Assembly: GCA_024137785.1 (NCBI GenBank)
Contig: JAHRHZ010000016.1
Span: forward strand, 38,811,305-38,875,304
Direction: 5' to 3'
Origin: Ginglymostoma cirratum
Taxonomy: Eukaryota
DNA: 64,000 bases
A program made the position numbers and the translations under genes. Of the stretch, positions 330 to 63,465 are shown piece by piece (position 1 is the stretch's first letter; each line of letters begins with the position of its first letter). The notes under the pieces are model-generated. The model had not been told where the DNA came from. It searched no databases and saw only the letters and a program-made list of their open reading frames with translations.

Positions 330-601
330 GATAACAAGGTGTAGAGCTGGATGAACACAGCAGGCCAAACAGCACCAGAGGAGCAAGAAGGCTGACGTTT
401 CGGGCCTAGACCCTTCTTCAGAAAAAAGAAAGCACGTGGGATACAGGACTATTTATCTGATTGGAATTTTTTTTTTTCTGAAGAAGGGTCGAGGCCCAAA
501 ACGTCAGCCTTCCTGCTCCTCTGATGCTGCTTGGCCTGCTGTGTTCATCCAGCTCTACACTTTGTTATCTCAGATTCTCCAGCATCTGCAATTCCTGCTA
601 T
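330..601. mobile_element. Fold-back non-autonomous PLE derivative (family A): two inverted terminal-repeat fragments around a ~39-bp spacer
   Basis: 330-427 is the near reverse complement of 467-570. Both arms match the 3' end of the PLE at 3440-3534. TSD caactgaata(c/g)ata at 316-329 and 602-615. Confidence 0.88.
394..421 (-). ncRNA. Minimal hammerhead ribozyme motif of PLE type, intact core
   Basis: Minus strand reads CTGAAGA-A-GGG-TCTAGG-CCC-GAAA-CG-TC: CUGANGA and GAAA boxes, 3-bp stem II, palindromic ACGU helix III and a GUC cleavage triplet. Stem I is weak and activity is untested. Confidence 0.65.
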
Positions 602-2216
602 CAACTGAATAGATATTTTGGTTCTGTCTTCACAAAAGAGGACTCCAATCAGATACTAAAGTTGTTGGAGGAGGCAAGATTTAGTGAGAGTGAAGAACTA
701 AGGGAGATCGAAATTAGTAGAGTAATGGTGCTGGGAAAATTGTTGGGATTGAAGGCCAATAAATCCCCATGTCATGATTATCTATATCACAGAGTACTTA
801 AGGAAGTGGCTATAGAAATAGTGGATGCGTTGGTGGTCATCTTCCAGGATTCTATAGACTCTGGAACAGTCCCTGCAGTTTGGACGATGGCTAATGTCAC
901 TCCAATATTCAAAAAGGGAGATAGAGAGAAATTATAGACTGGTGAGCCTAACATCGGTACTGGGAAATTTTCTCAAATCCATTGTCAAGGATATTATAGC
1001 AGAGCATTCAGAAAGCATTGGCAGGATCAGACAGAGTCAGCATGGATTTATGAAGAGGAAATCATGCTTGACAAGACTGTTGGAATTCTATGAAGATGTA
1101 ATTAGTAGAGTTGACAAAGGGGAGCCAGTTGATGTAGTATATTTGGACTTTCAGAAAGCGTTTGACAACGTCCTGTATAAGAGATTAATGTGCAAGTTGA
1201 AAGCAAATGGAATAAGGGAAAGTGTATTGATGATTTGGATGAGGGAACAAAATGTAACATCTCAACAAGTTTGCAGATGATACCAAATTGGGTGGGAGGG
1301 TGAACTGTGTCAACGATGCAGAGACCCTTCATCATGATCTCGACAGGTTGGGTGAGTGGGCAAAACAATGGCAGATGCAGTATAATTTGGATAAATGTGA
1401 GGTTATTCACTTTGGAAGACAGAAAAAGAAAGCAGATTACTACCTGAATGGCTATTAATTGGGAGAAGGGAGTGGGCAGTAGGACCGGAGTGTCCTTGTT
1501 CGCCAGCCGCTGAAGGCAAGCATGCAGATGCAGTAAGCAATAAAGAAGGCAAATAGTATGTTGGCCTTCATTGTGAGAAGTACAGGAGCAAGCGTTTGTT
1601 GTTGCAGTTATACAGGGCCTTGGTGAGACCACACCTAGAATATTGTGTGCAGTTTTGGTCTCCTTTTCTGAAGAAGGATGCTCTTGGTCTCAAGGGAGTG
1701 CAGCGAAGGTTTACCAGGCTGATTCCCGGGATGGCAGGTCTGAAATATCAGGAGAGATTGACTAGATTGGGTTGGTTTCACTGGAATTCAGATGAATGAG
1801 GGGGGATCTCACAGAGACTTATAAAATTCTAACTGGACTGGACAGGGTAGATGCAGGAAGGATGTTCCCAATGGTGGATGTGTCCAGAACCAGGGGTCAC
1901 AGTATGAGGACTCAGGGTAGACGATTTAGGACGGAGATGAGGAGACATTTCTTCACCCAAAGAGTGGTGAGCTTGTGGAATTCATTACTACAGGAAGTAG
2001 TTGGTGCCAAAACATTGGATGAATTCAAGAGGCGCCTAGATATAGCACTTGGAGCGAATGGGATCACAGGTTATGGGAAGAAAGCAGGATTAGGCTATTG
2101 AATTGGACAATCAGCCATGATCGGGGCGGCACAGTGGCTCAGTGGTTAGCACTGCATCCACACAGCAGCAGGGACCCAGGTTCGATTCCATCCTCGGGCA
2201 ACTGTATGTGTGGAGT

Positions 2217-3534
2217 GAGAGACAATAGGTACTGCAGATGCTGGAGAATCCGAGATAACAAGGTGAGGAGCTGGATGAACACAGCAAGCCAAGCAGCATT
2301 ATAGGAGCAGGACCCAGTGTAGGGCCCTAAACCCCACCTCTTCCTCCGTACATTGATGACTGTATCGGCGCCGCCCCGTGCTCCCACATGGAGCTCGAAC
2401 AGTTCATCCACTTCACCAACACCTTCCACCCCAACCTGAAGCTCACCTGGACCATCTCTAACACCTCTCTCTCCTTCCTGGACCTCTCTGTCTCCATCTC
2501 AGGTAACCACCTAGAAATTGATATCCATTTCAAGCCCACCGACTCCCACAGCTACCTAGAATACACCTCCTCCCACCCAGCTGCCTGCAAAAATGCCATT
2601 CCCTATTCCCAATTCCTTCGCCTCCGCCGCATCTGCTCCCAGGATGAAGCATTCCACTCCCGTACATCTGAGAGTCCTCATTCTTCAAGGACCGCAACTG
2701 CCCCCCCNNNNNNNNNNNNNNNNNNNNNNNNNNNNNNNNNNNNNNNNNNNNNNNNNNNNNNNNNNNNNNNNNNNNNNNNNNNNNNNNNNNNNNNNNNNNN
2801 NNNNNNNACCTGCACATCTGCCAATGTGGTATACTGCATTCGCTGTACCCGTTGTGGCCTCCTCTACATTGGGGAAACCAAGCGTAGACTTGGGGACCGC
2901 TTTGCAGAACACCTGCACTCAGTTCACAACAAACAACTGCACCTCCCAGTCGCGAACCATTTCAACTCCCCCTCCCATTCCTCAGACGACATGTCCATCC
3001 TGGGCCTCCTGCAATGCCACAATGGTGCCACCCGAAGGCTGCAGGGACAGCAAATTATATTCAGCCTGGGAACCCTGCAGCCCAATGGTATCAATGTGGA
3101 TTTCACAAGCTTCAAAATCTCCCCTCCCCCAATCGCATCCCAAAACCAGCCCAGCTCGTCCCCGCCTCCCTAACCTGTTCTTACTCTCACCTATCCCCTC
3201 CTCCCACCTCAAGCCGCACCCCCATCTCCTATCTACTAACCTTATCCCGCCCCCTTGACCTGTCCATCCTCCCTGGACTGACCTATCTCCTCCCTACCTC
3301 CCCACCTACACTCACCTTTACTGGCTCCATCCCTGCCTCCTCGACTTGTCTGCCTCCTCTCCACCTATCCTCTCCTCTATCCATCTTCTATCCACCTCCT
3401 CCTCTCTCTCTATTTATTTCAGAACCCTCTTCCCCTCCCCCATTTCTGGTGAAGGGTCTAGGCCCAAAACATCAAGCTTTCCTGCTCCTATGATTCTGCT
3501 TGGCCTGCTGTGTTCATCCAGCTCCACACCTTGT
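2217..3534 (+). mobile_element. 5'-truncated Penelope-like retroelement (family A, probably Neptune-type) with an inverted 5' terminal-repeat piece
   Basis: RT motif YIDD at 2349-2360, then SFLDLSVSI...HFKPTDSHSYL...SSHP..CKNAIPYSQFLRLRRICS. The C-terminal GIY-YIG reads TCTSANVVYCIRCTRCGLLYIGETKRRLGDRFAEH...LGTLQPNGIN, with a stop at 3173. 2217-2312 is an inverted copy of the 3' end. TSD tgt(a/c)tgtgtggagt at 2203-2216 and 3535-3548. Degenerate hammerhead at 3446-3473. Confidence 0.92.
2708..2807. other. Assembly gap (100 N) inside the PLE ORF
   Basis: Run of N between the RT thumb and the GIY-YIG region. Confidence 0.99.
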
Positions 3535-3854
3535 TGTCTGTGTGGAGTTTTCACATTCTCCCCATGTCTGTGTGGGTTTCCTCCAAGTGCTCCGGTCTCT
3601 TCCCACAGTCCAAATATGTGCAGGCTAGGTGGATTGGCCATGCTAAATTGCCTGTAGTGTTCAGGGAGGTGTGGGTTATAGGGGAATGGGTCTGGGTGGG
3701 ATACTCTGAGGTTCGGTGTGGACTTGTTGGCCTGAAAGGCCTGTTTCCACACAGTAGGGATTCTATGATTCTATGATTGTGAAGAATGGCGGAGCAGGCC
3801 CAAAGGGCTGAATGGCCTCCTCCTGCTCCTATCTTCTATGTTTCTATGATTAGA

Positions 3855-4635
3855 TAGTCAGATAGCTGAACAATGGCAAATGGAGTTTAATCCTAAAAAG
3901 TGTGAAGTGATGTTTTTTGAGAATTCGAACAAGGTAAAGGAATACATATTGAATGGTAAAACCTTAGGAAGTGCAAAGGATCAGAGGAACTTTGGTGTGT
4001 ATGTCCAAAGATCCTTGAAGGCAGCAGGACAAGTTAAATAAGGTGGTTAGAACGTCATATGGGATACTTGCCTTTATTAGTCAAGGCATTGAAAATAAAA
4101 GCAAAGAGTTTATCATGGAGCTGTGTATGTTATCTAGGTCATACCTCTGGGAAAGATTTAATTGCACCAGAGAGGTTTCTGAAGAGATTCATCAGGATGT
4201 TGCTTCAGCTAGACTGATTCAGATATGAAAAAAAGACGAGATAGGCTGGTGGTGTTTTCCTTAGAGCAGAAAAGGATGAAGGGGATCTGAAACATACACA
4301 ATGTTTTCCATTGCATAGACAGGGTAAATAGGGTGAAATGTTTCCCTACTGGAAGTGTCAACCACCAGGGAGCACATGTTTAAGGTTAGGTGCAGGAGGT
4401 AAAGGGGGAATTTAAGGAAGCATTTTCTCACCCACAGGGTTATATGTTTCTGGAACTCTACTGAAAATAGTGGTGGAGGGATGTACCCTAAAGCCATTCA
4501 AGAACTGTTTCGATGTTTTTTGAAATGCCATAGTTTACAAGGCTGCGGGCCAAGTACTAGAACATGAGATTAGAAAAGGTGGATGTTTGATGATTGGTGT
4601 GGATATGATGGGCTGTAAAAATTCAATACTCTACG
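3855..4635 (+). mobile_element. CR1 LINE 3' fragment (decayed)
   Basis: Begins WQMEFNP.KCEVM.F, includes YGILAFISQGIE and the FLTHRV..FWNS region, and ends in a CR1-type 3' UTR. Confidence 0.85.
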
Positions 4636-4689
4636 ATTTAAAAAATATAAGAAAGCCATACCATCCTTGAGGATATTTCTCCAATATTG

Positions 4690-4970
4690 TACTCTGGCAA
4701 AGGATGAGCATCCAAAATGATAATCTGTCTCCTGTTGTCTTACCGAGTAGGAGTGCAGTGGCGAAGAGGTGAGAGTAGGAATGGCAGATTAAGTTGATTT
4801 CATGAACTGGTTGGAAACTAAAGTCACTTTTATGGGTAACTGAGGAGCTTTATGTTTGGACTGACCAGGGTGAAGAAAGCCTTGTTCCATAATGAATGCA
4901 GTACACGAGATTTGTGGAAGTACAAATACCTTGTGTTAGGAAGGAGCATTTGAGTCTCTAGACAATTTTG
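4690..4970 (-). mobile_element. Old PLE GIY-YIG relic
   Basis: tgaatgcagtacacgagatttgtggaagtacaaata...ggaaggagcatttgagtctct resembles the PLE endonuclease segment at 28939-29015. Confidence 0.5.
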
Positions 4971-7900: not shown

Positions 7901-8049
7901 TTATTATTTTTGGGCAGGTATCTTTATCATTGATATACTGGATGAATCCACTTCAAGCTTTTAACTGCTTTGGTTGAATCTATAGTTTGAGACTATCAGC
8001 TCAGTTCTTCACTTTTTTCTCTTCATAGTCATTAGTAATTCAGCTTTCA

Positions 8050-9230: not shown

Positions 9231-9269
9231 ATGACAGCTGTTGTAAAAACAGACACATAATTTAAACAA

Positions 9270-11635: not shown

Positions 11636-11870
11636 AGGTAAAACACTGTGGATACTGGAAATCTAAAACAAACACAGGGAGTGCTGGAGAAACATGGCAG
11701 ATCTGCAGCATCTGTGGAGAGAAAGAAACAGGGTTACGTTAGAACAGATTGTTCGGAAGAGACATACCAAACTCAAAACATCTCTTCTATCTCTCTCTCT
11801 CTCTCCCCCCCCCTCCACCTCAGATGCTACCAGACCTGCCAAGTTTCCCCAGCCTTCTCTGTGTGTGTTG
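11636..11870. mobile_element. Old fold-back PLE terminal-repeat derivative (family B)
   Basis: aacacagggagtgctggagaaacatggcagatctgcagcatctg is inverted relative to cagatgctaccagacctgccaagtttccccagccttctctgtgt. It matches the ends at 28301, 29490 and 38195. Confidence 0.7.
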
Positions 11871-12749: not shown

Positions 12750-12845
12750 TTTCTCTTTTCTCAGATGCTGCGAGACCTGTTGAGTATTTGTAGCATCTTA
12801 AGCTTTTGTTTCAAATTTCTGGCATCTACCGTATTTAGTGTTTAT
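12750..12845 (+). mobile_element. PLE family B terminal-repeat fragment
   Basis: cagatgctgcgagacctgttgagtatttgtagcat...tttctggcatctaccgtattt matches 38195-38270. Confidence 0.6.
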
Positions 12846-13554
12846 TTTAATTTCTGTTCAATTTATTGATCCCAGCTGATAAAAATTATAACAGAAAGGG
12901 AGGCCAATTTTCCATCTCTTGTACTAGATCTTCAAGTAGGTCCTGCTATTTCAATCCCATTCCTTTATCTTCTGTGTGACTTCTTTATTATTAAGTATTC
13001 AGTTCTATCCTTGATGATATACTTTTCATTTCAGCAATTAGTCAGAGAAGTACTTTACAAGTCCTCTGCATGTGGAACAAAGTATTTTAAAATCCGCCTT
13101 TATTTTTAGGTTGTATTTCTGAGTCAGTGCCACCTAGGTAACCAACTAATGGAAGCAATCTTTCACTATCAACACACAATTGAGCTTAGTGCTTTCATAT
13201 GGTTGAAGATTGTGGAAGTGGTCAGAAGAACAAGATCTCAGTCAGGCTTCGTAACCTTCATCACTATCAAGCAGTTCACATTGCCGAAAGTGTGATTATC
13301 TTTCCCTGGATAGTGGATGATCTAACCGATGATGCCGTTTGGGCTTCCACATTGTGACATCTCTCTCCAGGTTTGCACAACAAAGTGGAGAAAAGTTAAT
13401 AACTTTCAAGAAGCTATGCTTTCAGAATGGCAACCAGAGATCAGGTAGAATGTCAAGTATCTCACTTAAAACTGTATATAAATGTAAAATCAAAAGAGGA
13501 AAGCATAAATGACAACAGTAAATAAGGAAGGAATAATTGGGAACCTTTTTTATG

Positions 13555-14375
13555 AGGTTTGGCAGATGGAGTTTAATTTAGATAAGTGTGAGTTGCTGCA
13601 TTTTCGAAAGGGAAATCAAGGCAGGACTTATACACTTAATGGTAAGATCCTGAAGAGTGTTGCTAAACAAAGAAACCTTGGAGTGCAGGTTCATAATTCC
13701 TTGAAAGTGGAGTTACAGGTAGGCAGGATAGTGAAGAAGGCGTTTAGTACACGCCTTTATTGGTCACTGTATTAAGTACAGGAGTTGGGAGGTCACGTTG
13801 CAGCTGTACAGGACATTGGTTAGGCTACTTTTGGAATACTGTGTGCAGTTCTGGTCTTCCTACTATAGGAAGGATGTTGTGAAACTTGAAAAAGTTCAGA
13901 AAGTATTTACAAGGATGTTGCCAGGGTTGGAGAGTTTGAGCTGTAGGGAGAGGGTGAATAGACTGGGGTTATTTTCACTGCAGTATCGAAGGCTGAGGGA
14001 TGACTTTATAGAAGTTTATAGTGTCATGAGGGGCATGCAAGGGTAAATAACTCAGGTCTTTTCCACAGGTTGGGGGAGTCCAGAACTAGAGAACATAGGT
14101 TTAAGGTGAGAGGGGAAAGATTTAAAAGGGACCTGAGGGGCAACTTTTTCACACAAGGATGGTGAGTGTATGAAATGAGCTGCCAGAGGAAGTGGTGGAG
14201 GCTGGTACAATTATGTCTTTTAAAAGGCATCTGGATGAGTATATGAATAGGCAAGGTTTAGAGGGATAAGGGCCAAATGCTGGCAAATGGGACTAGATTA
14301 ATTTAGGATATCTGGTTGGCATGGACAAGTTGGAGTGAAGGGTCTGTTTCCATACTGTAAGACTCTATGACTCTA
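13555..14375 (+). mobile_element. HER1/CR1 LINE 3' fragment
   Basis: WQMEFNLDKCELLHF and LYRTLVRLLLEYCVQFWS...FTRMLPGLE. The tail gactctatgactcta resembles the HE1 SINE tail. Confidence 0.92.
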
Positions 14376-16049
14376 TAATTGTACAAGCATGCATGGTCTT
14401 TACTCTGATGAAGAATGATTGGCAGCATGCTGTATATAAAAATGCAGATTGTGGTCATTGTGACATAACATGTAAGTTCAATGTCTGTTTGTTATCATGG
14501 ACAAAGTACATAGAGGTTGTAAGACAGGTTGAATCTTTTGTTCTTTGTTTCTTTGCATACCCTATGCATTTGAATCTGTTCTTTGCAAACTATGCAGGTT
14601 ACTAACAGCTGGATGGCATGTGACAATTCTAAAATATTCATTGAACATCCTCAAAATTATTTGAAACATCGTGGAAAGAGATAACCCAGTAGTTGGTGGC
14701 TGAATAAAAAGATGGGAAGAAGTTATTACTGTTTGTTCAAACTGGGATGAAATGTTCTGCCTGCGTTGTACTGTTAATCTGTCTCCTGTAGAGATGACAT
14801 CTTAAGGTCCTTGTGAGCTTAAGATTTATGGAACATAAGCTGTCTTATTGAGGTAGAATCTAAAAGCGGATTTAGGTTAGCTAATTTTGGTACTAATTAA
14901 AATAATTGTCCCAACGAATTGCAATTTTGACATATCACAGACCAAACAATCTTCAATTATAGCTATTTGAACAAAGAAATGGCTCTATTTTTAATTTTGG
15001 AACTGGAAGTAATACATTGCCCACCCGTATTTCTACAGTAACTGTCTGACAAATTAGAATGTGTATAAAAATTTTTATTATTATACGTGATGTCAACGTT
15101 TCCTCAACTGATGCCAGTATTACTCACGTGATACCACTTTTGTTTTTTAGCTGGGAACTCTTAAGTTTGAACTTAAATCACAAATTCAACTCTTAATCCA
15201 GTCCAACATAGTGGGATTAGTTTTGGATTGTTCCCACAAAGAGCTGGGACTGACACAGCGAATTCAGCATTCTCCTACCATGCTATACACTTCCCTGGTT
15301 CATTGGTGCAGCAGTTCGGAAGCACCTCATTGTCAGACAAGCAATCCTCTTAGATAAGATATGGAACATAGTTCACATGGGTCATTGTTATAAAGCAGCT
15401 TTAATAAGAACTAGTACAGTTCTTAGTGCTCTGGAAGAATGAAGTGGTCCAGGTCAATTCTGTCTTGCAATTTTCTGTGAGTGAACAATAATAGAAGTGA
15501 CGCTTTGAATCTGATAGCTGATCTAAGAATTGGTTTTCAATCTGTGATAGCTTTCACATTCAGCGCTTTCTCTGATACTGTGACTCTGACTTAATATTTG
15601 TGTGTATTCATGATCTAGTTTTTGAATTTTAATGACCCAACCTGGTGTAATCAGGCACGTGTTCAGTTAAAATGTCTTGAATATCCTTCTCTTCCCTTCA
15701 CTTCTTGATGCAGCTGTCCACCGTTTGAGCATTTTTTGTTTAGATGGCTAAGGCATGGCCCAAGGATCTACATAAAAATGTGTAAATTGGTTCCTTTAAT
15801 GTTATTTGGGTCCCAATAGTATTTTGATGGCCTACTGAGATGGAGAGCCATTTTGGGTGCTCAATGTAGCAAAACTTGGCAAGACATAGAGGGCAACCTC
15901 ATAAAACAAGAATAAGCACTTTCCCTCATGGAATCAGGTGTGGTATGTAGGTGTTCAGACTGCACAAGGAAAATCTGCACCTCCAATGCCTTACAATCTC
16001 ACCAATGAGTGATCGTTACCCTGTCTCAGATGAACTTCAGTAGGGGGTG

Positions 16050-17415
16050 AATTAAGGTTCCGCATGGTGACTGGTTAGCAAGGTTATATAACATGGAATA
16101 CAGGAAGAGTTAGCCACTTGGATACAAAATTAGCTCAAAGTTAGGAGACAGAGGGTGATTGTGGAGGGTTGCTTTACGGACTGGAGGTCTGTGACCAGCA
16201 GCATGCTGCAAGTATCAGTGCTGGGTCCACTGCTTTTTGTCATTTATAGCAATGGTTTGGACGTGAATACTGGAAGTATGGTTAGTAAGTTTGCATATGG
16301 CACCAAAGTTGGTGGTGTAGTAGACAGCAAAGAAGGTACAATGGGAGTACAATGGGACCTTGATCAGATCGGCCAAAGGGACCGAGGAGTGGCAGATGGA
16401 GTTTAATTTAGATAAATGTGAGGTGTTAGATTTTGATGAGGCAAATTAGGACAGGACTTATACGCTTAATGGTAAGGTCCTGGGGAGTGTTGCCAAATAG
16501 AGAGACCTTGGGATGCAGGTTCATAGTTCCTTGAAAGTGGAGGAGCAGGTAGACACGGTGGTAAAGAAGGCGTTTGGTACACTGGCCTTCATTGGTCAGT
16601 ATATTGAATATATGAGTTGGGAGGTCATGTTGTGAACGTACAGGGCATTGGTTAGGCCACTTTTGGAATACTGGAAGCCAGGCAAAAACAGCGAAAGGAG
16701 CACGCTGCCTCACCAGTGCGCCACCCACCCCTTCCTGTGAACGCTGCTGGCCCCAAGTGTAACAGAGCTTGTGATTTCTGTGTTGGTCTGTCCAGCCACC
16801 TATGGACTCACCCAGAGAGTGGAAGAGAATCACCCTCATCTGTGAGAGACTATTAATGATGAATGCATTCAATCCTAGTCTCCCTGCTATAAGAAAGATG
16901 TTGCAAAACTTGAAAATGTCTGGAAAAGATTGACAAGGATGCTGCTGGGGTTGGACGGTTTGAGATATGGCGAGAGGTTGAATAAGCTGGGGCTATTTTT
17001 CCTGGAGTGTTGGAGGCTGAGAGGGGGTGGGTGACCTTATGGAGGTTTATAAAGTCACGAGGGCCATGGATAAGGTGAGTAGCCAAGGTATTTTTTTTCC
17101 CTGGGTAGGGGAGCCCAAAACTAGAAGGAATAGGTTTAAGGTGAGGGGGCAAGATTTAAAAAGGACCCTAGGGGCAACATTTTCAAGCAGAGGTTGGTGC
17201 GTATATGGAATGAGCTGCCAGAGGAAGTGGTAGATGCTGGTACGATTACAACATTTAAAGGGCATCTGAACTGGGATATAAATTGAAAGGATTTAGAGGA
17301 ATACAGACCAAATGCTGGCAAATGGGACAAGATTAATTAAGAATATCTGGCCTGCATGGACAAATTGGACCAAAGGGTCTGTTTCCATGTTGTACATCTC
17401 CGTGACACTATGTGA
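16050..17415 (+). mobile_element. HER1/CR1 LINE 3' part, interrupted by an RTE fragment
   Basis: KVPHG.L, QVSVLGPLLFVIY, SKFAYGTKVGG (decayed FADDTK) and WQMEFNLDKCEV. The 3' UTR matches 14200-14375. Confidence 0.92.
16674..16862 (+). mobile_element. RTE-clade LINE 3' end inserted in CR1
   Basis: Reads PKCNRACDFCVGLSSHLWTH, like the RTE C-terminal CP.C.R...S.IGL.SH.RTH finger, followed by a short UTR and an atgatga tail. It splits the CR1 LEYC|IQ motif. Confidence 0.75.
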
Positions 17416-19262: not shown

Positions 19263-19263
19263 A

Positions 19264-19546
19264 ATAGAGTCATAGAGATGGTCAGCACGGAAATAGACAC
19301 TTCGGTCCAACTTGTCCATGCCAACCTAATATTCTACATTGATCTCGTCCCATTTGCCAGCATTTTGTCTGTACCCCTCTAACCCTTTCCTATTCATGTA
19401 CCCATCCAGGTGCCTTTTCAATGTTGTCATTGTACCTACCTCCACTAGCACCTCTGGCAGATAATTCCATACACGCACCACCCTCTGTGTGAAAACGTTG
19501 CCCCATGGGTCGCTTTTGAAATCCTTCCCCTCTCACCTTAAACCTA
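19264..19546 (-). mobile_element. HER1/CR1 3' end
   Basis: Reverse complement of the CR1 tail at 14095-14375. Confidence 0.88.
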
Positions 19547-22407: not shown

Positions 22408-22527
22408 GAGACAATAAGACTGCAGAAGTTGGAAGCCAGAGTCTATAGGTATGAGGCTGGAAAAGCACAGCTGGTCAGATAGCACCTGAGGAGCAGGTAA
22501 GTCAATGATTCGGGCTGAGACCCTGTA
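22408..22527 (-). mobile_element. Short PLE family A terminal-repeat insertion
   Basis: Diverged copy of 2217-2312 and 62823-62945, truncated in hammerhead stem II. TSD-like gacaatg(t/g)atgtct(c/t)cag at 22390-22407 and 22528-22545. Confidence 0.75.
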
Positions 22528-22787: not shown

Positions 22788-23712
22788 GGTGAGACTCAAG
22801 ATGGCGGCAGATTGAGATGCCCCTGTCGGAGCTCCTCTGCTCGCCAGTTCCTTTTCCTCTCTCTCTTTTTTTTTCTCCTCTTTGCAGTAGTTTTCCTTCA
22901 CAATCCCCCACCCCCACACCTGGAGAATGGAATCGAGGGATGAGTCATGACCAGAGCCCGGATAGGAGCTAAGTGCACGGGCCAAATCCCACAGTGGTAG
23001 CGGAGCGAGCATGAGCCCTGTCCTGGAGTGGTAGCAGCACAGTGAGCACGGGGCGAATCCCTGAGCAATGGCAGCACAGTGAGCACGGGGCGAGTCCCTG
23101 AGCGATGGCAGCACAGCGAGCATGGGGTGAGTCCCTGAACGATGGCAGCACAGCAAGCACGGGGCGAGTCCCTGAGTGATGTCAGCACAGCGAGCATGGT
23201 GTGAGTCCCTGAACGATGGCAGCACAGTGAGCATGGGGCGAGTCCCTGAACGATGGCAGCATAGCAAGCACTGGACGAGTCCCTGAGTGATGGCAGCACA
23301 ATGAGCATGGGGCGAGTCCCTGAGTGATGGCAGCACAGCGAGCACTGGGGCGAGTCCCTGAGTGATGTCAGCACAGTGAACACTGGGCAAGTCCCTGAGC
23401 GATGGCAGCGGAATGAGTCCTGGCCAGACACCAATGCACAGAGGTAGCATTGCCTCATGTTCTGAATCCAGCGGGCACAGTCTCAAGTTTTAGAAGTTAA
23501 AGTCCTTTTCCAACATAAGTACTTTATGGTCACTTTTGTTATCATTCTGGACTTTTTAATCCTGATTCTCATGCTTACCTTTCTTTTACTTTGTAACAAC
23601 ACATAAAGTAAATGTACCTAAGTATTCTGTACGTAAGATGTCTCAGAGAGGCAGCGTTACAAACTTTTCACTGCAGTCATTGAGTGTATATGACTATAAA
23701 GGCTAAAGGCTA
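22788..23712 (+). mobile_element. Non-autonomous retroposon with Rex1/Babar-like ends and an internal minisatellite
   Basis: 5' caagatggcggc (YY1-like motif), 3' cttttcactgcagtcattgagtgtatatgactataaa followed by a tandem aaaggct tail, and no RT. The family assignment is from recollection of Rex1/Babar termini. Confidence 0.55.
23034..23410. repeat. 37-bp GC-rich minisatellite, about 10 copies
   Basis: Unit gcagcacag(t/c)gagca(c/t)ggggcgagtccctgag(c/t)gatg starts at 23034, 23071, 23108, 23145, 23182, 23219, 23256, 23293, 23330 and 23368. Confidence 0.97.
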
Positions 23713-28300: not shown

Positions 28301-29576
28301 CAACAAAACAGAACTTGCTGGAAAAACTCAGCAGGTCAGGCAGTATCTGTGGATAGAAAGCAGAATTAATGTTTTGGATTCAGTGACCCTTTTTCAGAAC
28401 AATTGCAGCTGGGAAAAGGTTGGTATATATGCCAAAGAAGGGGTGGGAAGGATCATGATAAGTCGACATGGAACTCAGAGAGAGAGAGAGAGAGAGAGAC
28501 AGTTGGACAGACAAAGGACTGTATAAAGGTCAGCCTGAGAGACTCAATAGTTACTAATGGGGACAGTTAGTGGCTGACAATGAGTTATTTGTGGTAGCAG
28601 CCCATGTGATGACAAGGCCTGGTGTGTAGGAGTTGACGTAAGGACACGGAAGAAGATGCTCAAGCCCTAAAATTGTTGAACTCTATATTGAGCCTCGAAG
28701 GCGGCAGGGTTCCTAAGTGGGAAATGAGATGTAGTTCTTCCAGCTTGCACTGACCTTCGCTGGAGCACTGCAGCAAGCCTAAGATTGAGATGTTAGTTGG
28801 AGAATATGGTGGTTGTTGAAGTCACAGGCAACTGGAAGCTTAGGATCATTTTTGCGGTCAGAACATAGGTCTTCTACAAAGTGGTCATCCAGTCTACACT
28901 TTGTCTCCACAATGTCGAGGAGACCACATTGTGAGCAGTGAATGCAGTAGACTAGATTGAGTGAAGGACAGGTAAATCGCTGCCTCACCTGGAAGGTGTG
29001 TCTGGGGCCTTTGATATTGAGGGAGGATGAAGTAAACGTGTAGGTGTTGCACCTTCAACAGTTGCAGGGGAAGGTATCATGGGGATGTGGGGAGGTGTTG
29101 GGAGTGGAGGAGGAGTGGACCAGAGAACTCCACACCTTTCTGGATTCAATATCAATTTCATCAATTTTAGAATTTGAACACTTTCTCTGAAGCCTTTACC
29201 CCAAAACCCACACACCAGGGTCCACACTGTGTTATCTCTTGTCATCACATGGGCTGCTACCACAAATAACTCATTGTCAGCCACTAATGGTCCCCATCAG
29301 TGGCTATTGAGTCTCTCAGACTGACCTTTATCCATTCCTTTGTCTGCCCAACTGTTTTTCCTCTCTCTCTCTGCTCCATTTCCACCTATTGTTTACTCTT
29401 TCCCCCTCCCCTCACCCCATCTTTAGCACATATACAAACGTTTACTCAAGAGTTATCAGCTCTAGAGGAGGGTCACCCATTTTCTCTCCACAGATGCTGC
29501 CAGACCTGCTAAGTTTTTTCTAGCAATTTCTGTTTTTGTTTCTGATTTTCAGCATCTGTAGTCCCTTGTTTTTTTT
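28301..29576 (-). mobile_element. PLE family B fold-back insertion: GIY-YIG region flanked by ~400-bp inverted arms
   Basis: Minus ORF 28779-28988 reads RQRFTCPSLNLVYCIHCSQCGLLDIVETKCRLDDHFVED (decayed GIY-YIG). 28301-28705 is the diverged reverse complement of ~29132-29540. Confidence 0.88.
28477..28499. repeat. (GA)n microsatellite inside the PLE arm
   Basis: agagagagagagagagagagaga. Confidence 0.95.
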
Positions 29577-30183
29577 CATTGTCAATTCCCCTTGGTTTCA
29601 AGCTCATATAATCTTGTGTATTACCAGTATTTATCAACATTTCATATTTCATTGAAAGGATGAATGCATAGATACACTCCTAACTACAAAAAAAATCAGT
29701 TTTATATCATATTCTTGCATCCCTTCAATTTTTGTGACCTTGTTGGAAAATTTTAAAGTTTACGAATTGTGAAAGAGACAGATCGCTTCTGTGTAATTAC
29801 AACAATTAAATCTACCATTTTGCCTGCATAGTATCCAAATAGACTGTGTTGCAATGTAAAAATAACTGTCTCTGCCTTCACTAATCCATTCATTCCAGGG
29901 TTCAAAGCCAGTATTCTTTCGGAACTAAGACAAAATCTAGTATTCTGATTTTTTTTCTTTTTGTACAAAATGATTTTTTTTCACAAACTGTAGGAATTCT
30001 TTTCTCTCAAGAGATATATTTTATTGGCAAATAGATTGGAGCTACAAACAGCAACCAGTATATGTTTGAGAGAGATGCTGCATGCATCAAAGAGGGTCAA
30101 AAAGACTTTGTGGGTAAACAAAACATAAAAGGCCAACATTACTTGTGGTGGCTATATTTATGCATACTAAAGATAAAATAATC

Positions 30184-30708
30184 ATTTATAAAGCATCTTT
30201 CAGGGCCTCAGAATATGCAACCACTTCATGCAATGAAATATTTTGACATGTCATCTTTACTGTAATTTAGAAAACATGGCAGTCCATTTACACACAACAA
30301 ACTCCTCAAAACAACCACATGACAATTTATGAAGAAGGGTCCCGATCCGAAACGTCAACTTTGCTGCACCTCTGATGCTGCCTGGCCTGCTGAGTTCCTC
30401 CAGCTCCACACTGTGTTAACTCTAATTTCTTTGTCTGGGATGTTGTTTGAAGAATTAGTACTGAAGAGGGTATCAGGATAACTCACTAATTTTTTTTTTT
30501 GCGAAAACCGTGCCAGAGGATATTTTGTGTTCACCTGAATGGGTACACATGACAATGTAACATTCCATGTGAAAGACAGGGCCTCCAACATTGCAACATT
30601 CCCTCAATACTGCGCTTGTATACCAATCTAGATTTCCTACTTAAGTTCAGCAGTTGGGTTTGAACCCCTCTTCTCCTGAATCAGCAGCAAGACTTATGAT
30701 TGACACCT
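30184..30708 (-). mobile_element. DeuSINE (SacSINE1-like) element, interrupted by a PLE fragment
   Basis: B-box on the minus strand (gggtttgaaccc), Deu-like core (gtgccagaggatattttgtgttcacctgaa...gaaagacagggcctccaacattgcaacattccctcaatactgc) and an L2-like tail near 30184. Confidence 0.7.
30329..30430 (+). mobile_element. Short PLE family A insertion starting at the hammerhead motif
   Basis: TGAAGA-AGGG-TCCCGA-TCC-GAAACGTC at 30330-30356, then tctgatgctgcctggcctgctgagttcctccagctccacactgtgttaactct. No clear TSD. Confidence 0.8.
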
Positions 30709-31108: not shown

Positions 31109-31472
31109 GGGCAGCATGGTGGCTCAATGGTTAGCACTATTGTCTCACTGTGCCAGGGACCTGGGTTCAATTCGAGCCTTGAGCAGCTTTCTGTGTAGAG
31201 TTTGCATGTTCTCCCCATGTCTGTGTGAGTTTCCGCTGGGTGCTCCGGTTTCCTCCCACAGTCCAAGATGTGCAGGTTCGTTGGATGGACCTTGCTAAAT
31301 TGCCTGATAGCATCCAGTGATGTGCGGGCTAGGTGGATTAGCCATGGGGAATGCAGAGTTACAGGGATAGCACTGAGGTGTTGGGGTGGACTGGTTGGGA
31401 TGATCTTCAGAGGTTCAGTGTAAACTCAATGGGCCAAATTGCCTCTTTCTGCACTGTCAGGATTCTGATTCT
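31109..31472 (+). mobile_element. HE1-type V-SINE
   Basis: A-box tggctcaatgg, B-box ggttcaattc, V domain and CR1-like tail. Confidence 0.9.
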
Positions 31473-34547: not shown

Positions 34548-34641
34548 TTCTGATGAAGGGTCTAGGCCCGAAATGTCAAGCTTGCCTGCTCCTATGATGC
34601 TGCTTGGCCTGCTGTGTTCATCCAGCCCCACACCTTGTTAT
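34548..34641 (+). mobile_element. Short (94 bp) PLE family A insertion beginning at the hammerhead
   Basis: Perfect 13-bp TSD cccccaaaacatt at 34535-34547 and 34642-34654. The sequence matches 3444-3534. Confidence 0.92.
34550..34577 (+). ncRNA. Minimal hammerhead ribozyme motif
   Basis: CTGATGA-A-GGG-TCTAGG-CCC-GAAA-TG-TC. The catalytic boxes are intact and helix III has a C>T change. Confidence 0.6.
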
Positions 34642-37668: not shown

Positions 37669-37972
37669 GGGTGGCACGGTGGCACAGTGGTTAGCACTGC
37701 TGCCTCACAGTGCTAGGGATCTGGGTTTGATTCCACCCTCAGGCAACTGTCTATGTGGAGTTTACACATTCTCCCTGTGTCTGTTCGGGTTTCCTCTGGG
37801 TGCTCTGGTTTCCTCCCACAGTCCAAAAATGTGCATGCTCAGTGGATTGGCCATGCTAAATTACCCCTATTGTTCAGGGATGTGAGAATTGGATAGGTTT
37901 GGGTGGGATTCTCTGAGGTAAGAGTGGACATGTTGGGCCAAAGGGCCTGTTTCCACACCGTAGGGATTCTTT
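37669..37972 (+). mobile_element. HE1-type V-SINE
   Basis: gggtggcacggtggcacagtggttagcactgctgcctcacag...ggattggccatgctaaatt...gcctgtttccacaccgtagggattct. Confidence 0.92.
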
Positions 37973-38144
37973 GAAATGTACAGTTGCATTCTTTCCAGCA
38001 TTGTACTGCATTTGCCAAATCTTTGCTCACTCATGCAACCTCTCTATATCCCTTTCTAGGCTTCTTCTGTCCTCTTCACAACTATCTTTCTGTCAGTAGC
38101 AAATGTAGCCCATCATACCTTCATCCAAGTCATTTATATACATT

Positions 38145-38274
38145 CTGAGGAAGGGTCACCGGACCTGAAACGGTAACTCTGTTTTCTCCTCCAGAGATGC
38201 TGCCAGACCTGCTGAGCTTTTCCAGCGACTTTGTTTTTGTTCCTAACTTACAGCATCCGCAGTTCTTTTGGTTT
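38145..38274 (+). mobile_element. Short (130 bp) PLE family B insertion beginning at a hammerhead motif
   Basis: Perfect 15-bp TSD tcatttatatacatt at 38130-38144 and 38275-38289. It starts CTGAGGA-AG-GGTC-ACCG-GACC-T-GAAACGGTAACTCT. Confidence 0.9.
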
Positions 38275-51126: not shown

Positions 51127-51231
51127 TCAATATAACTTTACATAACCTTATAAAACTAATTGCCAATTTTGTCAAAACTTGTCAAATAAATCAAAATGAA
51201 ATAAGTAAGTGAAAACATTATATGTAATTCT

Positions 51232-56109: not shown

Positions 56110-57308
56110 TGGGAAGTGGCACATAAGGAATAGATGGGTCAAAGGATAATCCCTGGGGTCTCCTGAGGTGATTGAATTTGAGATGGAACGAGAAGCCATT
56201 GAGAGAAATTCTCTTACTGTAATTAGATCAGCAGGAATGAAAACAAACAAGGACATTGTCAACAAATTAGATAACAGAAAGGAAAAAAAAGAGATATTTG
56301 ACAAGATGATCTGATTGACCACTTGGAAAGTGCAGCAGAAGTAAGGAAGGAATGAGGTGTAGTTCTAGTGAGTGTTGCATGTGATATTTTTCTGGATTAT
56401 TTTGATAATACATTCCAGATCACTGTGAAGAAAAGGAAAGTATAAATAAGGCAATGGTTAGTAAATACAGAAGAATCAAGTCTAGATTTGCCATTTAGAC
56501 ACAGATCCTTAGTGACGTTGTCTAGAAACAAATCAGGTTCCATATTTACACTGATGACACTAAGTTCTATATCACCAGTCCTTTGACCCACCTGTCTACC
56601 CACTTGATGTTGCCTATTTGTCACAATACCACTTTAACATTCAGAACTGGATAAAAAAAATTCCTACAACTGAATATCACAAATATCAAAGCCCAGGAAA
56701 AACTCTATTCCCAAGCCACCAACTCAGTCAGTCTCCATGGCAACAGAAGGTGAACCAAACTTTTGCAATCTGTGGTCATTTTAACCTGGAGTTGTCCATT
56801 TATGCTCCCTTACCCAGACCACTTACTTCTAACACCATATCATTGCCCAGCTGAATTCCTGCCTCAGTTCATTAGCTGCTATAGTTTTGTTTGAGGCATT
56901 AGACTGAACTATTCCAATACTCCTCGAAATGCCCCCCATCTTTCATCCAACAAGTAGCTCCAGAATTCTGCTACAGGCCCCATCCCTATATAACTCTAGT
57001 CCCCATTTCATTGTGACCATTGTTCTCATTGAACAATATTGGCTCCTGGAACAGTGACGTTTCAATTTTTAAATTCTGATCCTTGTTTTCAAATCCCTCC
57101 AAGGGATTCCCTCGATAAACCTTGACAGTCATCTACCACTCTTTCCTCCTTTAAAGATACTTTTTAAAAACCACCTCTTTGATGAAGTTTTCCATCATCA
57201 ACTGAACATCTTATTTGATTCTATGTCAGATTTTGATGATAAAACTCATATGCACTCCTTTGGGTAATTTTACTAGATTAAAGACACTGTTGAAATGCAA
57301 GTTGTTTT
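56110..57308 (+). mobile_element. L2-clade LINE 3' part with a probable inverted 5' segment (56110-56400)
   Basis: FHIYTDDTKFY at ~56538-56570 (FH.YADDTQLY), RLNYSNTP (RLDYSN.LL), FNF*ILILVFKSLQG and an L2 tail. The minus strand at 56140-56220 reads SRSISNSITSGDPRDYPL (SGVPQGS.LGP-like). Confidence 0.75.
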
Positions 57309-57469
57309 CAGGTATTTTGTGAAGGGAATTGGACATGACAGATTAGAAAGGAAGGGGGACGATGCTGTTTAGACTGAATATCACTTTGAAATCAAGGCAG
57401 TGTTTGATCAAGTGTAGAGCCAAGGATCTATAGCAAAGATGAAATTAATGGGAAATGAATGAAAAAAAA

Positions 57470-58070
57470 AGCCCATTGTCTTGACCTTTCAAATATGTGC
57501 TTGGAAAGGAGGATGGCCATGGTTGCCAGTAATCACTGCATCCAAAGATTTCTGCAGGAGTTCTTCAAGAAAAGGCTCTAGGTTCAACTGTCCTCAGTTC
57601 TTTCATCAATGAAATTCTGCCTATTATAAAGTCAGGAGTGAGACCATTCACTGATGATTAATTCCATCATATTAAATTCCATTCAAAACTCTCCTCCAAA
57701 TGAAGCAGTACAAGTTAGTCTCTGATAGCATCTACAAGACATTCTGACTCATAATGACAGGAAACACTGATGCCTCATAAATATCTCATACTGTTGAAGA
57801 AATGAGATTAGTGACTAATCCACTACCAACAATTCAAAGCCATTATTGACCAGAAGTTGTCTTATTAAGGCTGTGGCTAAAAGAATAAGGAAGAGTTTAA
57901 ATTCTCTACAATGAGTGACCCGTCTTCTGGCTTCTCAAAGCCTTTCCACCATCTGCACATGTCAAGTCAGAGGTTCTGTCCACGGACCTTAATGGGTGTG
58001 GCTGCAATGTCCGTCAAACATTTTAGCACCTTTAACATCTGTAATCTATATTTCTTGCACTGGCATGCCA
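57470..58070 (+). mobile_element. LINE family 2 RT remnant
   Basis: tctgcaggagttcttcaaga...ttcatcaatga...ttcactgatgat is colinear with 43150-43260. Confidence 0.7.
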
Positions 58071-58149
58071 ATTCTCTACACCATATATGATGTCTCAATT
58101 ATTCTTTTGTTTGCAGTTTTTCTTTTGTTGTAGATATTCTATATCATAA

Positions 58150-60700
58150 CCCTTTTTGTGTGGTTAGCTATTTGATTGGTTTTCTGAATCTGTGGCCCAA
58201 TTCTGTATATATTTCTGAAAGTGACCTATTGTGTGACAGATAAAACATTCACTTTGTACAGTTGGATGCTATCTGTGCCCATGAAGTTTCTCTACCATAC
58301 AGTGCAGGCTGGCTGGTGCCTGTCACAATAACTATGCTGGTTTCTCAAGTATCATTTGTGGTTTTTCTACATTAAGAATTGAATGGAGTCTGCTGATCTC
58401 TTGTACCAAGGCTGTTCTACTCCTCTTAGGATCAATCTACCTTGCTAACAGAACTCTGATTCACTCACCATCTGAACAACTTCCTTTCGAGTCAGACCTG
58501 TTTTAGTCTGTAATAAATCTGACACATACTCATCACCCATTCTGACAAGAATTCTGACTATTATGAATTACCAGTTGAAGTCACTACAATTGGCTTTTCT
58601 CCAATAATCTGTACAGATATTTAACAAAACAATTCATAGATTCTCCAGGGTACTAAACTCTTCTGTTAAATTTCAGTCTTACAAGCATTTTATCAGTGTT
58701 GGGGGTGAATTAACTTAGAAGCTTTTAAAGTACCTGTTCAAAGTGCCTATTACTTGTTTTACTCCTCGTGAGCTGCCATGCCATCAGCTATGCTTCCAAA
58801 TCCAGACTGAAGTGTGTTTAGTTGTTCAGCCTCTCATTTAATGTTGATTCTGTACCTCAGAAATTGGTTTGTCCAAGATGTCTAACTCTGTTCTGTTTGG
58901 CCTACTTCTGAAATCCGTTATTTCTTTCAATATTATTATTCATAAAATGTCTTTCTAATGTGGTTGTATATTTTCCTTGCTTAAAATACTTGTTACATTA
59001 GTGTAAGAGCTTAACTGAAGGGTTTTCCCATCAAAAAGGAGGATTCAAACCTTTTGCAGCAAAAATTAAGATTCCCACATTTGACAGGCAAAATGAAGCA
59101 TTCCAATATTTTTCATGGCTTCACTGTATGCATCCCAGTGTTCACATCTTTAATAAACAATTCTCACTTTAATTACGTTTCTTCTGATGAATTCCATTGA
59201 CGATACAAATGAATGATTTTTTGCCTTTATTGAGGCTCTAATGAATAATCCCTATTTTTGCAGCAGACTGAATATTGTCCCCTTTTTCTGTATGCATGAG
59301 GTTTTTACTCACACAGCCTTCAATGTCTGTTCACTCACTACTAAACTCCCAACTTGGGACACTTCCCACAGAGACCATCTGTGATGCAGCCTGTTTCTGC
59401 TTTGGAGTTACTAATTTTCTTTATCCAGGCATTGCTAACTCTCATGTTGCAGTGTGCCTTTTATCAGGCCTGAAATGCCTTTCCCATTCACTCCTATATT
59501 CATCCTTGTCAACAATTACCATGAGGGATTCTTTGTAAATCTTCAGCTTTTCACCATTGCTGATCATACTGTATGAGTCAGTGACTTAAAGGTGAGTCTG
59601 AAGATCTAACATTTCTGCTCATTAAGCAGTCAAAACAGATCTCCACTAATGCTTACCATGATGTATGGGTATACCAACTCACTATTCTGTATGAGTTGCT
59701 GCTTATGATGAAGACTCCTGCCAACATCCTCTTTAATTTTAAGAAGCTACAGGCCTGCTTTGTCTATGTGGCAGAGGAATGTACTTCCTGGTCTAAGAAG
59801 ATTTTCTTGTGGTTAACAAGATATAGTTGATTGCATTTTACAAAGTAATTACAAATTATAGTGATGTGATAAACTCTGTTACATAGACTTTGAGAAGAAC
59901 AGATGTTAGGACTTATTCTTTTGAGATCCTGAACTTTTCAGCCCACAGCTCCATAGGATGCCATGCATAATGCTTCTGTCATTCCTCAATATTGACCTTC
60001 TCTGATCCATATACAACAAAATCTACCATTACCACAACTAGTGCACTGTAAGTGTACAATACACAAGTAGTGCAGCAACTCTTCAAGCTAATTTCACAAG
60101 TATTGCTTTCCTCTGAAACCTCTGCTCAAAAACAATGCTTTGAGAGCATGAATTTCACAAACCCAATAATTTTCAGACCTTACAGCCACTGGTGTTATCC
60201 TGGAGGTGGCCACCACTTCCATAGTGGGAAAGGTGACCTTCAATCTCTGTACAAAGCCTTCTGTTACATTTCAGCAGAAATCCTCCATACTCCTTGCCAG
60301 TGGCAGAAAGCTGTCTCAGTGCTTCCTCATGTACCAAACATGTTGTTGTGAATCCTCGTCAACATTCTCTTGTAGACCACCTCATTGAAATTCTCGTCTG
60401 ATTCCTCATTAGCTAGTCTGGTCTGGGACTTTGATGTCCAGTGATCTGGCACATATTCTACCTTTTCCCCTGGCATGGTTATAGTTCACTCCTGCCCAAT
60501 GGCTCACTTTTGCTCATTTCAACCCCAGTGTATCCTCCTAATGTGTGCAGTGCCACTGTCTGAACTGCTTGCTCTAAGTACCAGATCAAGCAAATTTCTT
60601 CTCAGCACATCATCGTTGCTTTGTCTTGTCCTTCTTGTGTCATAGTATCTAGCAAGCCACAGTTCTTGGATGTCTGACAGCATGAATTCAGCACTGGAGT
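58150..60700 (-). mobile_element. Highly decayed Ty3/Gypsy pol (RT, RNase H and integrase relics)
   Basis: Minus frames, in Gypsy order: KALYRD*RSPFPTMEVV, VVVMVDFVVYGSEKVNIEE (YxDD region), IDKAGL, VVSEQTLKAV...LLQK (TDHKPL-like), ICTDYW (VDYYS-like) and SDG. All matches are weak. Confidence 0.5.
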
Positions 60701-61309
60701 GTTGAGGCAATGGTCACATGATCAGTAGCTCACACTTCATGCTAGGGAGCAAGATTTTGCAACAACACCAGTTGCAACAGAATCTGTCACCGTCAATGCT
60801 ATGATACACAGCACCTTCTTGTCCAAAGGGCTGAGGAGGTGTTGGGGTGCCCATTAGTTGTTTGCTGTTCCCTTTGATTATATGCCACATTATCTTTGAA
60901 GAGAGTGAGATTATCAAAATTTGTGTTACACTCTAATTGTTGTAGGCATACGTGAATAGCTGGAGATTTGTGGGTGCAATGAGAAGTGGGTGTGAGGCTG
61001 TTACCGTTGGAAAGAATATACAGGTGAGGAGCAATTTGTGAATGTTAGGCCAAACTTGTGACTGCTGGGACTGCTGATAGTTGAGTGATAGGTGTTTGGT
61101 ACATTGAGCAATGTGGAGGTTGTTATGAGATGTTCTTTAAAGATGTACTCGTTGACATCGACCACCTGTCCAAGGCTACCGGAATCTTTCCAGCCTCTGA
61201 AAAATATGGCCAATAGAGAGAAAGTTGAGAAAATCATGAGGGTTGGCTAGTGAGGAGCTTCTTTACATGGAGAGCAAAAAGTCCCATTTTCCAACCAAGT
61301 TTTGAACAG

Positions 61310-61941
61310 TGTTATGATACCGTTGCTTTAAGAGGCGTATCTTGACCTGATTTTTTTACGAAGAAAGGTTGATACAGAGGTGCTGAGCAGTCTGCTTAAA
61401 AACCAGTAAAGTAAATAAAGAGGTCTTGGGTGTGTTTTTTTTTTAAGTTGGAACAACAGAAGCAGCCTGAATGGGTAAGGTCAAGAACTAGTATTTTCTT
61501 TCAGTTTTAGCCTTCAGTAGCAGTTGCTAGGGTCTTGAAATTGGATGTAGAAGTTTGTATTCTTCTCTCTGTTACAACTAAAAACTGGGGCTCTCTTCCT
61601 GCTGCTAGAATTGCACATGAGACATTTTTTTTTATTGAATTTGCCTTTGCCAAGGGTGTGTTTATAGGATGTAACAATATTGGAGCAATTAGTTAGTAGT
61701 AGCTAATACATATATTGTTTTGTTAAGCATTTTGATTGAGACAGAATGAAGCCAATTATTTTATTTTTACTTTGTCTGCATTTTAACAATAGTGTATGAA
61801 GAGTTTGTTTTGCTTCAAGTCTGATAGTTTGACCAATCAAATTGCATTTGGAACACAACACCTTACACTTACCTTTAAAATAAGAAAAGGTTATGATTTA
61901 GATTGCCACCTTTAATATACTTTGAGTGGGTTTTGTCTGGT
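61310..61941. mobile_element. Probable solo LTR, truncated at one end
   Basis: Starts TGTTATGA, is ~630 bp and non-coding, and resembles an elasmobranch LTR family as I recall it. The terminal CA is missing. Confidence 0.5.
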
Positions 61942-62180
61942 GAGCTGAAATATTCATTAGTGAGTGATGAGGGGCCTATTTATATGTATTAGTCTACATT
62001 AACATTTCATTATTACATAATCCCACCTCATTAATATGCATGCTGACATCCTCTGAATGGAAAACAGATGCTAACAATTTGTGACATGAAAGCCAAAGTG
62101 ACTCCAGCTCACTGCTTGATTCTCCAGACCTCCTCCTTGGACAAGTTACCAATACCTTGGAATACCTCCATGGCAGCGAC

Positions 62181-62466
62181 CATAGAGTCATAGAGTTGTA
62201 CAGCATGGAAACAGATCCTTCAATCTAAATCATCCATAATGACCAGGTACCCTAAATTAATCTAGTTACATTTGTCAGCATTTGGCCCATAAATCTCTAA
62301 ACCCTTGATAACAAGGTGTAGAGCTGGATGAACACAGCAGGTCAGACAGCATCAGAGGAGCAGGAAAGCTGATGTTTCGGGTCTAGACCCCTCTAAACCC
62401 TTCCTATTCATGCATCCATCCAGATACTTTTACAATGTCGTAATTGTACAAGACTCCATCACTTTC
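62181..62466 (-). mobile_element. HER1/CR1 3' end interrupted by a PLE fragment
   Basis: Reverse complement of 14190-14375. Confidence 0.88.
62307..62390 (-). mobile_element. Short (84 bp) PLE family A insertion truncated within the hammerhead
   Basis: Perfect 12-bp TSD ctctaaaccctt at 62295-62306 and 62391-62402. The minus strand begins GGGTCTAGACCCGAAACATC. Confidence 0.92.
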
Positions 62467-62822
62467 ACTTCATCACCACATGCAACTCCTGTCCACAGAG
62501 CTTGGCATCTGACATGTCCAGCCTCACTGAATTATTATGCACTTTCCTGATCCACTTACAATATGGTACTGCACTTCAAAGCTCACCATCCCCTTTCATT
62601 GAAAGGTTGCTGTGAGGACACTTTGCACAAGGTCAGGAAACCATCTCGTGGATTGGACCAATGTGTGTTTCTCCAGGATCATCGCTTGCTGTTTTTGATG
62701 CCCACTTGTTTTGTGCTTGCCAAGAAAAGTCCTCTTTTTCTCCTGGGCCTCTGTTTAATTAGCTTCTCCTTCAGCTAATTTCATTACGGACAATTAGCAA
62801 AAGCTACCTGCTAATGAGTGTA

Positions 62823-63465
62823 TCAGAGATAATAGGAACTGCAGATGCTGGAGAATCCGAGATAACAAGGTGTGGAGCTGGATGAACACAGCAGGCCAAG
62901 CAGCATCATAAAAGCAGGAAAGCTTGACGTTTCGGGCCTAGGCCCTTCATCTGATGAAGGGTNNNNNNNNNNNNNNNNNNNNNNNNNNNNNNNNNNNNNN
63001 NNNNNNNNNNNNNNNNNNNNNNNNNNNNNNNNNNNNNNNNNNNNNNNNNNNNNNNNNNNNNNNNNNNNNNNNNNNNNNNNNNNNNNNNNNNNNNNNNNNN
63101 NNNNNNNNNNNNNNNNNNNNNNNNNNNNNNNNNNNNNNNNNNNNNNNNNNNNNNNNNNNNNNNNNNNNNNNNNNNNNNNNNNNNNNNNNNNNNNNNNNNN
63201 NNNNNNNNNNNNNNNNNNNNNNNNNNNNNNNNNNNNNNNNNNNNNNNNNNNNNNNNNNNNNNNNNNNNNNNNNNNNNNNNNNNNNNNNNNNNNNNNNNNN
63301 NNNNNNNNNNNNNNNNNNNNNNNNNNNNNNNNNNNNNNNNNNNNNNNNNNNNNNNNNNNNNNACCCTTCATCAGATGAAGGGCCTAGGCCCGAAACGTCA
63401 AGCTTTCCTGCTTTTATGATGCTGCTTGGCCTGCTGTGTTCATCCAGCTCCACATCTTGTTATCT
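62823..63465. mobile_element. Young fold-back PLE family A insertion spanning the 400-N gap
   Basis: Perfect 15-bp TSD ctgctaatgagtgta at 62808-62822 and 63466-63480. The arms on either side of the gap are reverse complements. Confidence 0.9.
62963..63362. other. Assembly gap (400 N)
   Basis: Run of N. Confidence 0.99.

Follow-up and report, generated by a model that had tools for sequence, protein, structure and literature searches.

The DNA analysed here is a 64,000-nt stretch of Ginglymostoma cirratum (contig JAHRHZ010000016.1; G000:C16:38811305-38875304 in the searched genome of 4.36 Gb), referred to as the window. It carries seven short non-coding inserts that an initial annotation had traced to the ends of Penelope-like elements (PLEs), and all seven were found at the coordinates it gave. 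Their PLE origin is borne out: they are end pieces of 85-135 nt from elements of the Neptune/Nematis type, mostly of two families called A and B below, and their 5' boundaries lie at a minimal hammerhead motif. All element positions are counted from hammerhead C3 = 0. In the window the short copies, or stubs, occur singly or as fold-backs of two opposed arms, six of the seven with a target-site duplication (TSD):

330..601, no strand assigned: family A fold-back stub whose inverted arm 329-424 (-3..+93) is separated by a 50-nt spacer from the direct arm 475-603 (-3..+126, tailed); 14-bp TSD
22408..22527, minus strand: old diverged stub, about 71% identical to family A, beginning at about +7; 18-bp TSD with 2 mismatches
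30325..30422, plus strand: older family A stub, -4..+94; TSD not found
34548..34641, plus strand: family A solo stub, -2..+92; perfect 13-bp TSD overlapping element-end letters
38145..38274, plus strand: family B solo stub that begins at C3 and includes the tail; perfect 15-bp TSD
62307..62390, minus strand: family A solo stub, about +8..+92; perfect 12-bp TSD
62823..63465, no strand assigned: family A fold-back; tailed arm 62824-62954 and short arm 63371-63466, both reaching -1, with a 400-N gap between them; perfect 15-bp TSD

A letter-by-letter check confirms the TSDs proposed for six inserts, at 14, 18, 13, 15, 12 and 15 bp with 1, 2, 0, 0, 0 and 0 mismatches; none was found for the insert annotated at 30329-30430 (best score 7), whose alignment begins at 30325. 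The 5' boundaries all fall within -4..+8: -3 in both arms of 330-601, about +7 in 22408-22527, -4 in 30329-30430, -2 in 34548-34641, 0 in 38145-38274, about +8 in 62307-62390 and -1 in both arms of 62823-63465. Two of the inner ends were read by eye, among them that of the old copy 22408-22527. Some details of the initial description change. The first core box of the hammerhead is missing from 22408-22527 and 62307-62390, and the span 62823-63465 crosses a gap of 400 N whose flanking halves are 100% complementary, so that the true length is likely about 240 nt.

From 115 sampled genome stretches of 10 kb (8 adjoining the window), 40 that were wholly N were dropped, which left 720 kb; 148 matches there yielded 109 family A arms with an intact 3' end and at least 85% identity, and 22 of these were bounded by N or an edge, leaving 87 usable 5' ends. 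Thirty-five of the 87 fall at -7..+5, so the claim that the boundary always lies at or near the motif stands for the window inserts but not for this random sample. Even so, the hazard at -7..+5 reaches 0.057 per nt, whereas the nine other bins stay at 0.001-0.006 (0.005-0.006 at +6..+45, where the cleavage site lies), and truncation per base is about ten times that of the neighbouring bins (Poisson p 4e-25 against six of them pooled). The peak contradicts a smooth length decay, the pattern named beforehand as speaking against a role of the motif. The expectation of a peak in two PLE families was also correct, and it takes the form of a sharp cliff at -6. Among 100 matches listed per family, filtered to deplete long copies, tallied by eye and retaining a few two-strand pairs and segmental duplicates, 88 of 95 non-long family A rows end at 0..-6 and 7 at -7..-29 (5 long), and in family B 91 of 94 non-long rows end at 0..-6, none at -7..-19 and 3 near -20 (6 long).

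Stubs of this kind are abundant. Exact core matches number 12,264 in family A and 3,009 in family B, with 0 for reversed controls. The first 30, unselected, comprise 11 short and 19 long copies in A and 23 short and 7 long in B, which agrees with a rough genome estimate of the short share among exact-core copies (36% and 72%); exact-core stubs alone would then number about 4,400 in A and 2,200 in B, again roughly. In 40 fetched junctions, picked from 200 listed rows as non-fold-back ends near -4/-5, 17 have TSDs of 11-16 bp (score at least 10), and the element begins at -2..-6, directly or behind filler. TSDs were found for about 12 of 47 solo arms in the 720-kb sample; those without one include arms bounded by N, nested insertions, fold-backs whose partner lies far away and perhaps target deletions. 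Two other sources of the cliff were rejected. A subfamily switch acting as an alignment artefact conflicts with the older subfamilies, which align upstream in long copies, and with the TSDs, which confirm the ends; a splice junction conflicts with the absence of an upstream exon common to the copies and of an AG in family A.

The 3' ends are fixed at two sites. In family A they are bimodal, with 35 of 109 arms at +92..94 and 56 of 109 at +125..130, and for the inserts as a whole the sites +92-94 and +125-130 delimit the known PLE "tail". These two classes match the two internal reverse transcriptase (RT) starts and the tail of the Anolis element PAc, and are read as RT start sites (PMC11167929). 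Fold-backs combine the classes: 27 of 37 candidate pairs (27 of the 30 classifiable) consist of a short arm opposed to a tailed one, 3 pair arms of the same class and resemble neighbouring insertions, and 7 could not be classed. Such pairing is what one would expect if both target strands were primed, at the two RT starts, in the way that purified PAc extends both strands. The hairpin centre of fold-back stubs is often occupied by an N gap (many sampled loci, for example L072, L060 and L017), and assemblies therefore likely misstate their length.

The motif at the cliff is, by its sequence, a minimal type I hammerhead with the core and a pairable stem II present, and its ribozyme activity is putative. 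In 18 hand-picked copies the core columns are invariant or nearly so and stem II is 97% paired; the same copies have no two-sided change in stem II and 2 covarying pairs in stem I, a score reached by 125 of 500 shuffles, with slid controls lower. An Rfam scan of the window returned no hammerhead match at E 5, only 2 weak snoRNA matches. The motif folds weakly (z -0.37 and -0.10), and folding of whole stubs gave no stable structure (z 0.75 and 0.02). The 720-kb sample of genomic DNA has no 5'-end peak at the cleavage site, +28. The inference of an uncleaved template made in the initial annotation is thus upheld: the cliff lies away from +28, in keeping with the uncleaved RNA template of PAc. 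Three tandem 38-nt copies of the family B hammerhead stand at G000:C8:13624956-13625094, the only array-like case among 200 listed rows.

The sequence normally upstream of the stubs is revealed by a long family A copy in the window, listed here with its candidate promoter motifs and a longer B-type element:

2218..3539, plus strand: long 5'-truncated family A PLE copy with RT end, GIY-YIG, 3' untranslated region, hammerhead C3 at 3446 and short end +93; inverted tailed arm 2218-2312
3411..3417, plus strand: TATA-like heptamer whose first base stands 31 nt above the predicted start A (3442); putative function
3440..3446, plus strand: initiator-like motif whose A at 3442 is position -4, the stop point of stub 5' ends; putative function
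28301..29580, no strand assigned: longer B-type PLE fold-back; minus arm with hammerhead C3 at 28397 and TATA-like hexamer 28424-28429 (-32); outer limits by eye

Sequence features identify the parents as endonuclease-positive (EN+) PLEs of Neptune/Nematis type, the two names being kept as a joint label. One open reading frame (ORF) that carries RT followed by a C-terminal GIY-YIG domain is present in the sampled locus L141 (RVT_1 at E 9e-6, below the curated cut-off; GIY-YIG at E 9e-5, above it), and GIY-YIG also occurs in the window at 2331-3170. Translations of L141 and L142 contain a zinc-finger linker, Cys-X4-Cys-X2-Cys, before the endonuclease, within the CX2-5CxxC pattern. The three structural marks of EN+ PLEs are all present, namely a pseudo long terminal repeat (pLTR) repeated ahead of the ORF, an optional 30-40 bp tail and an inverted 5' copy. 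Near-full-length copies contain hammerhead, tail and ORF in that order, and the same segment ends their 3' side. Young family A copies (L183, L185, L195, L203; +43..+130) have a short upstream ORF of about 28 codons that terminates exactly at the tail end, and the main ORF begins about 35 nt later. Among 24 ORF-bearing loci, 7 extend beyond +41, with 5' ends at -4, -5, +9, +40 (N-bounded), -52, -351 and -599. Another five of the 24 have their 5' end just past the RT start sites, three at +95..98 and two at +133..137 (L186, L199, L205, L189, L196), as if a long cDNA halted where another RT is primed.

The initial annotation missed that this upstream sequence resembles a promoter with a predicted transcription start at -4. 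An A/T island lies upstream of the cliff in long copies, starting at -35 in family A (window 3411-3417); of 10 long or probable long copies listed for other subfamilies, 7 have a TATA-like island at -32..-36. Most copies also have initiator-like letters at -6..0, and the A of the initiator-like motif lies at -4 in both main families. The resulting TATA-to-start spacing of 28-32 nt fits an RNA polymerase II (Pol II) core promoter. TATA and initiator-like motifs have likewise been noted in the pLTRs of Adineta (PMC3846280; PMC8557442). A run of 4-6 T after the -4 A is found in 24 of 54 short and 2 of 19 long family A copies (Fisher p 0.011), and the first 7-15 nt of the element are repeated at several junctions, re-copied terminal heptamers among them. 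With a lengthened T-run and re-copied first nucleotides, the junctions behave like the end of a template.

The inserts are TSD-flanked PLE end pieces, probably produced by RT that initiates at either of two internal sites and then runs off its template, an RNA whose predicted 5' end lies 4 nt ahead of the hammerhead core. This run-off reading is based on 3' ends fixed at two sites, a sharp cliff of 5' ends at -6..0 in both families and TATA- and initiator-like motifs at fixed spacing, together with junction stutter, ancestry common with long copies and the hammerhead-tail-ORF order; 2 of the 7 ORF-bearing copies that extend beyond +41 also start at -5 and -4. Under this scheme, Pol II would start at -4 and the mRNA would open with the -4..+129 segment, which is repeated at the element's 3' end. 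A GIY-YIG nick would prime cDNA at +94 or +129, and the cDNA would be complete after about 98 or 133 nt and be joined through microhomology or filler. Fold-backs would form where both target strands are primed, one per start site. Stubs, which have no TATA box, would be dead on arrival, and read-through copies would restore the upstream box that start-site cDNA loses.

Several observations weigh against this account. Only about 40% of family A 5' ends lie inside the peak (52 of 87 fall outside), and for ORF-linked copies the 5'-end evidence is limited to the 24 loci. A clear TATA box is missing from one small subfamily, and the box of one copy sits at -22; the internal promoter of D. virilis Penelope is described as lacking a TATA box (PMC2377424). 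G is in excess at -5, with 16 of 29 in family A and 11 of 18 in family B, and is unclean as a cap signature; the excess is confounded, as many of these Gs belong to a TSD, an inverted arm or a re-copied heptamer, and it is not counted as support. Neither family has a pile-up of RNA starts or ends in the poly(A) and "other" RNA runs, a weak test because the reads come mostly from copies embedded in host transcripts; RNA depth does step at the cliff, a change that the genomic copies would produce in any case. Finally, stem I of the hammerhead has its first base at -4.

That last coincidence is the natural starting point for a different and rather improbable account, in which RNA structure or a bound protein blocks RT, or makes it let go, at the hammerhead's 5' edge within a longer RNA. 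The hammerhead of PAc is protein-assisted (PMC11167929), and many copies here do read through (19 of 30 in A, 7 of 30 in B). A folded motif, however, should stop RT at its 3' foot, near +31, where the hazard is background; the motif folds weakly, the cliff stays in place in family A despite the weak stem I there, and the TATA-like box at fixed spacing is left unexplained. The related suggestion in the initial annotation, stalling at the folded ribozyme, is unlikely for the same geometry: RT would meet the structure at about +31, yet by the time it reaches the peak at -6..0 it has copied the entire motif. Both +28 and about +31, where cleavage and stalling would put the ends, are at background hazard. 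A real RNA end at -4 might instead arise by processing (a nuclease, splicing or a circular-RNA junction), and we regard this as less probable again. End-of-template stutter is compatible with any physical end, and the D. virilis Penelope intron ends at helix I. Hammerhead cleavage would nevertheless place the end at +28, an AG is missing at the cliff in family A, the sequences upstream of the junctions are mutually unrelated, with no common exon or circle partner, and TATA- and initiator-like motifs fit initiation.

The proposal that the inserts form a separate retrozyme-like family is not supported. A self-propagating non-autonomous retrozyme or SINE-like (short interspersed nuclear element) family with its own master copies would account for the fixed length classes, high copy number and TSDs, and one clade of 7 older short-only rows (support 86/77) speaks for it. 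In a tree of 61 arms (41 short, 20 long; 87 columns, weak resolution, 2 intermediate arms dropped), short and long copies are nevertheless interleaved, with 14 label changes against a shuffled mean of 16.9 (37 of 500 shuffles as low) and 2 identical-sequence sets that span both groups. Tandem arrays are nearly absent: 83 motif-bearing arms include 4 same-strand neighbour pairs, beside the one 38-nt triple. A lone hammerhead cannot free a monomer, and the stubs lack the TATA-like box. No dominant back-joint of a circular or monomeric RNA appeared among those listed, in RNA libraries unsuited to the question. Such a family is already largely refuted and very improbable; judged from their sequences, the inserts are a real, regular by-product of known PLEs, not a new element family.

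Other repeats share the window. Decayed B-type PLE end fragments, absent from the initial annotation, lie at 11651-11724, 11813-11853 and 12751-12827. tRNA-like SINE copies occupy 2124-2216 with 3535-3770, 31109-31470 and 37669-37974, and the long family A element sits inside the first of them with a TSD of about 10 bp. Long interspersed nuclear element (LINE) fragments at 482-2101, 13554-14376, 16384-17412, 19264-19520 and 62182-62469 are presumably CR1/L2-like; inserts 330-601 and 62307-62390 are lodged in copies of that LINE. A 37-nt minisatellite spans 22962-23386.

As objects, the inserts are ordinary dead repeat fragments. Their value lies in what they record, because a base-precise 5' cliff in thousands of copies points to where transcription is predicted to start, to the end of a template and to two sites of priming. 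PLEs are the closest relatives of telomerase RT, and how they complete insertion and what the hammerhead is for are open questions that the cliff addresses. Retroviral minus-strand strong-stop DNA is a short cDNA that begins inside the RNA and reaches its 5' end, over a segment repeated at the termini. More tentatively, PLE replication may include a similar step, in which RT primes in the mRNA 5' repeat, copies as far as the cap and makes a long copy only by jumping to the 3' repeat; tens of thousands of genomic stubs would then be integrated failed jumps, and the hammerhead would mark the mRNA start. The five ORF-bearing copies that end past the RT start sites are a hint of such a step. Unlike retroviral strong-stop DNA, the product here would be target-primed and integrated, with no tRNA primer, and strand transfer is hypothetical.

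Much of this architecture is already published: solo minimal hammerheads, opposite-strand pairs, tails, inverted arms and two RT starts (PMC4209133, PMC3846280, PMC8557442, PMC11167929). The cliff and its link to a start site were not found in the literature searched, with subscription papers, Repbase and Dfam outside its scope; the supplements of bioRxiv 10.64898/2026.07.22.740005, which covers one cartilaginous fish, may list related units. EN+ PLE insertions with pLTR, 30-40 bp tail and inverted 5' copy have the same 5' truncation, inverted arm, one-end tail and TSDs, whereas many here retain only the last 85-135 nt, with a sharp 5' cliff, features not found in the available text of those studies (PMC3846280; PMC8557442). 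Metazoan PLE minimal type I hammerheads have the same core, extra base before stem II and palindromic minimal stem III, and thousands of solo hammerheads and opposite-strand pairs 100-700 bp apart were ascribed to truncated PLEs; the available text of that study contains neither a breakpoint map nor a promoter link, and names no sharks (PMC4209133). On the by-product reading, the many solo hammerheads of such genomes need no new class of element. The Anolis Poseidon element PAc behaves similarly in vitro, with two internal RT starts that likewise delimit the tail, cleavage and extension on both strands and an uncleaved RNA template. Its ORF starts inside the hammerhead, whereas the main ORF here starts after the tail, and unlike PAc the TSDs here have no obvious AT-rich target preference (PMC11167929). 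Non-LTR (long terminal repeat) retrozymes have the same relation to the PLE pLTR, contain a hammerhead and are non-coding, but they are tandem arrays with at least two ribozymes and circular RNA, whereas the inserts described here are solo or head-to-head, with the minimal motif at their 5' edge (PMC7229834; bioRxiv 10.64898/2026.07.22.740005).

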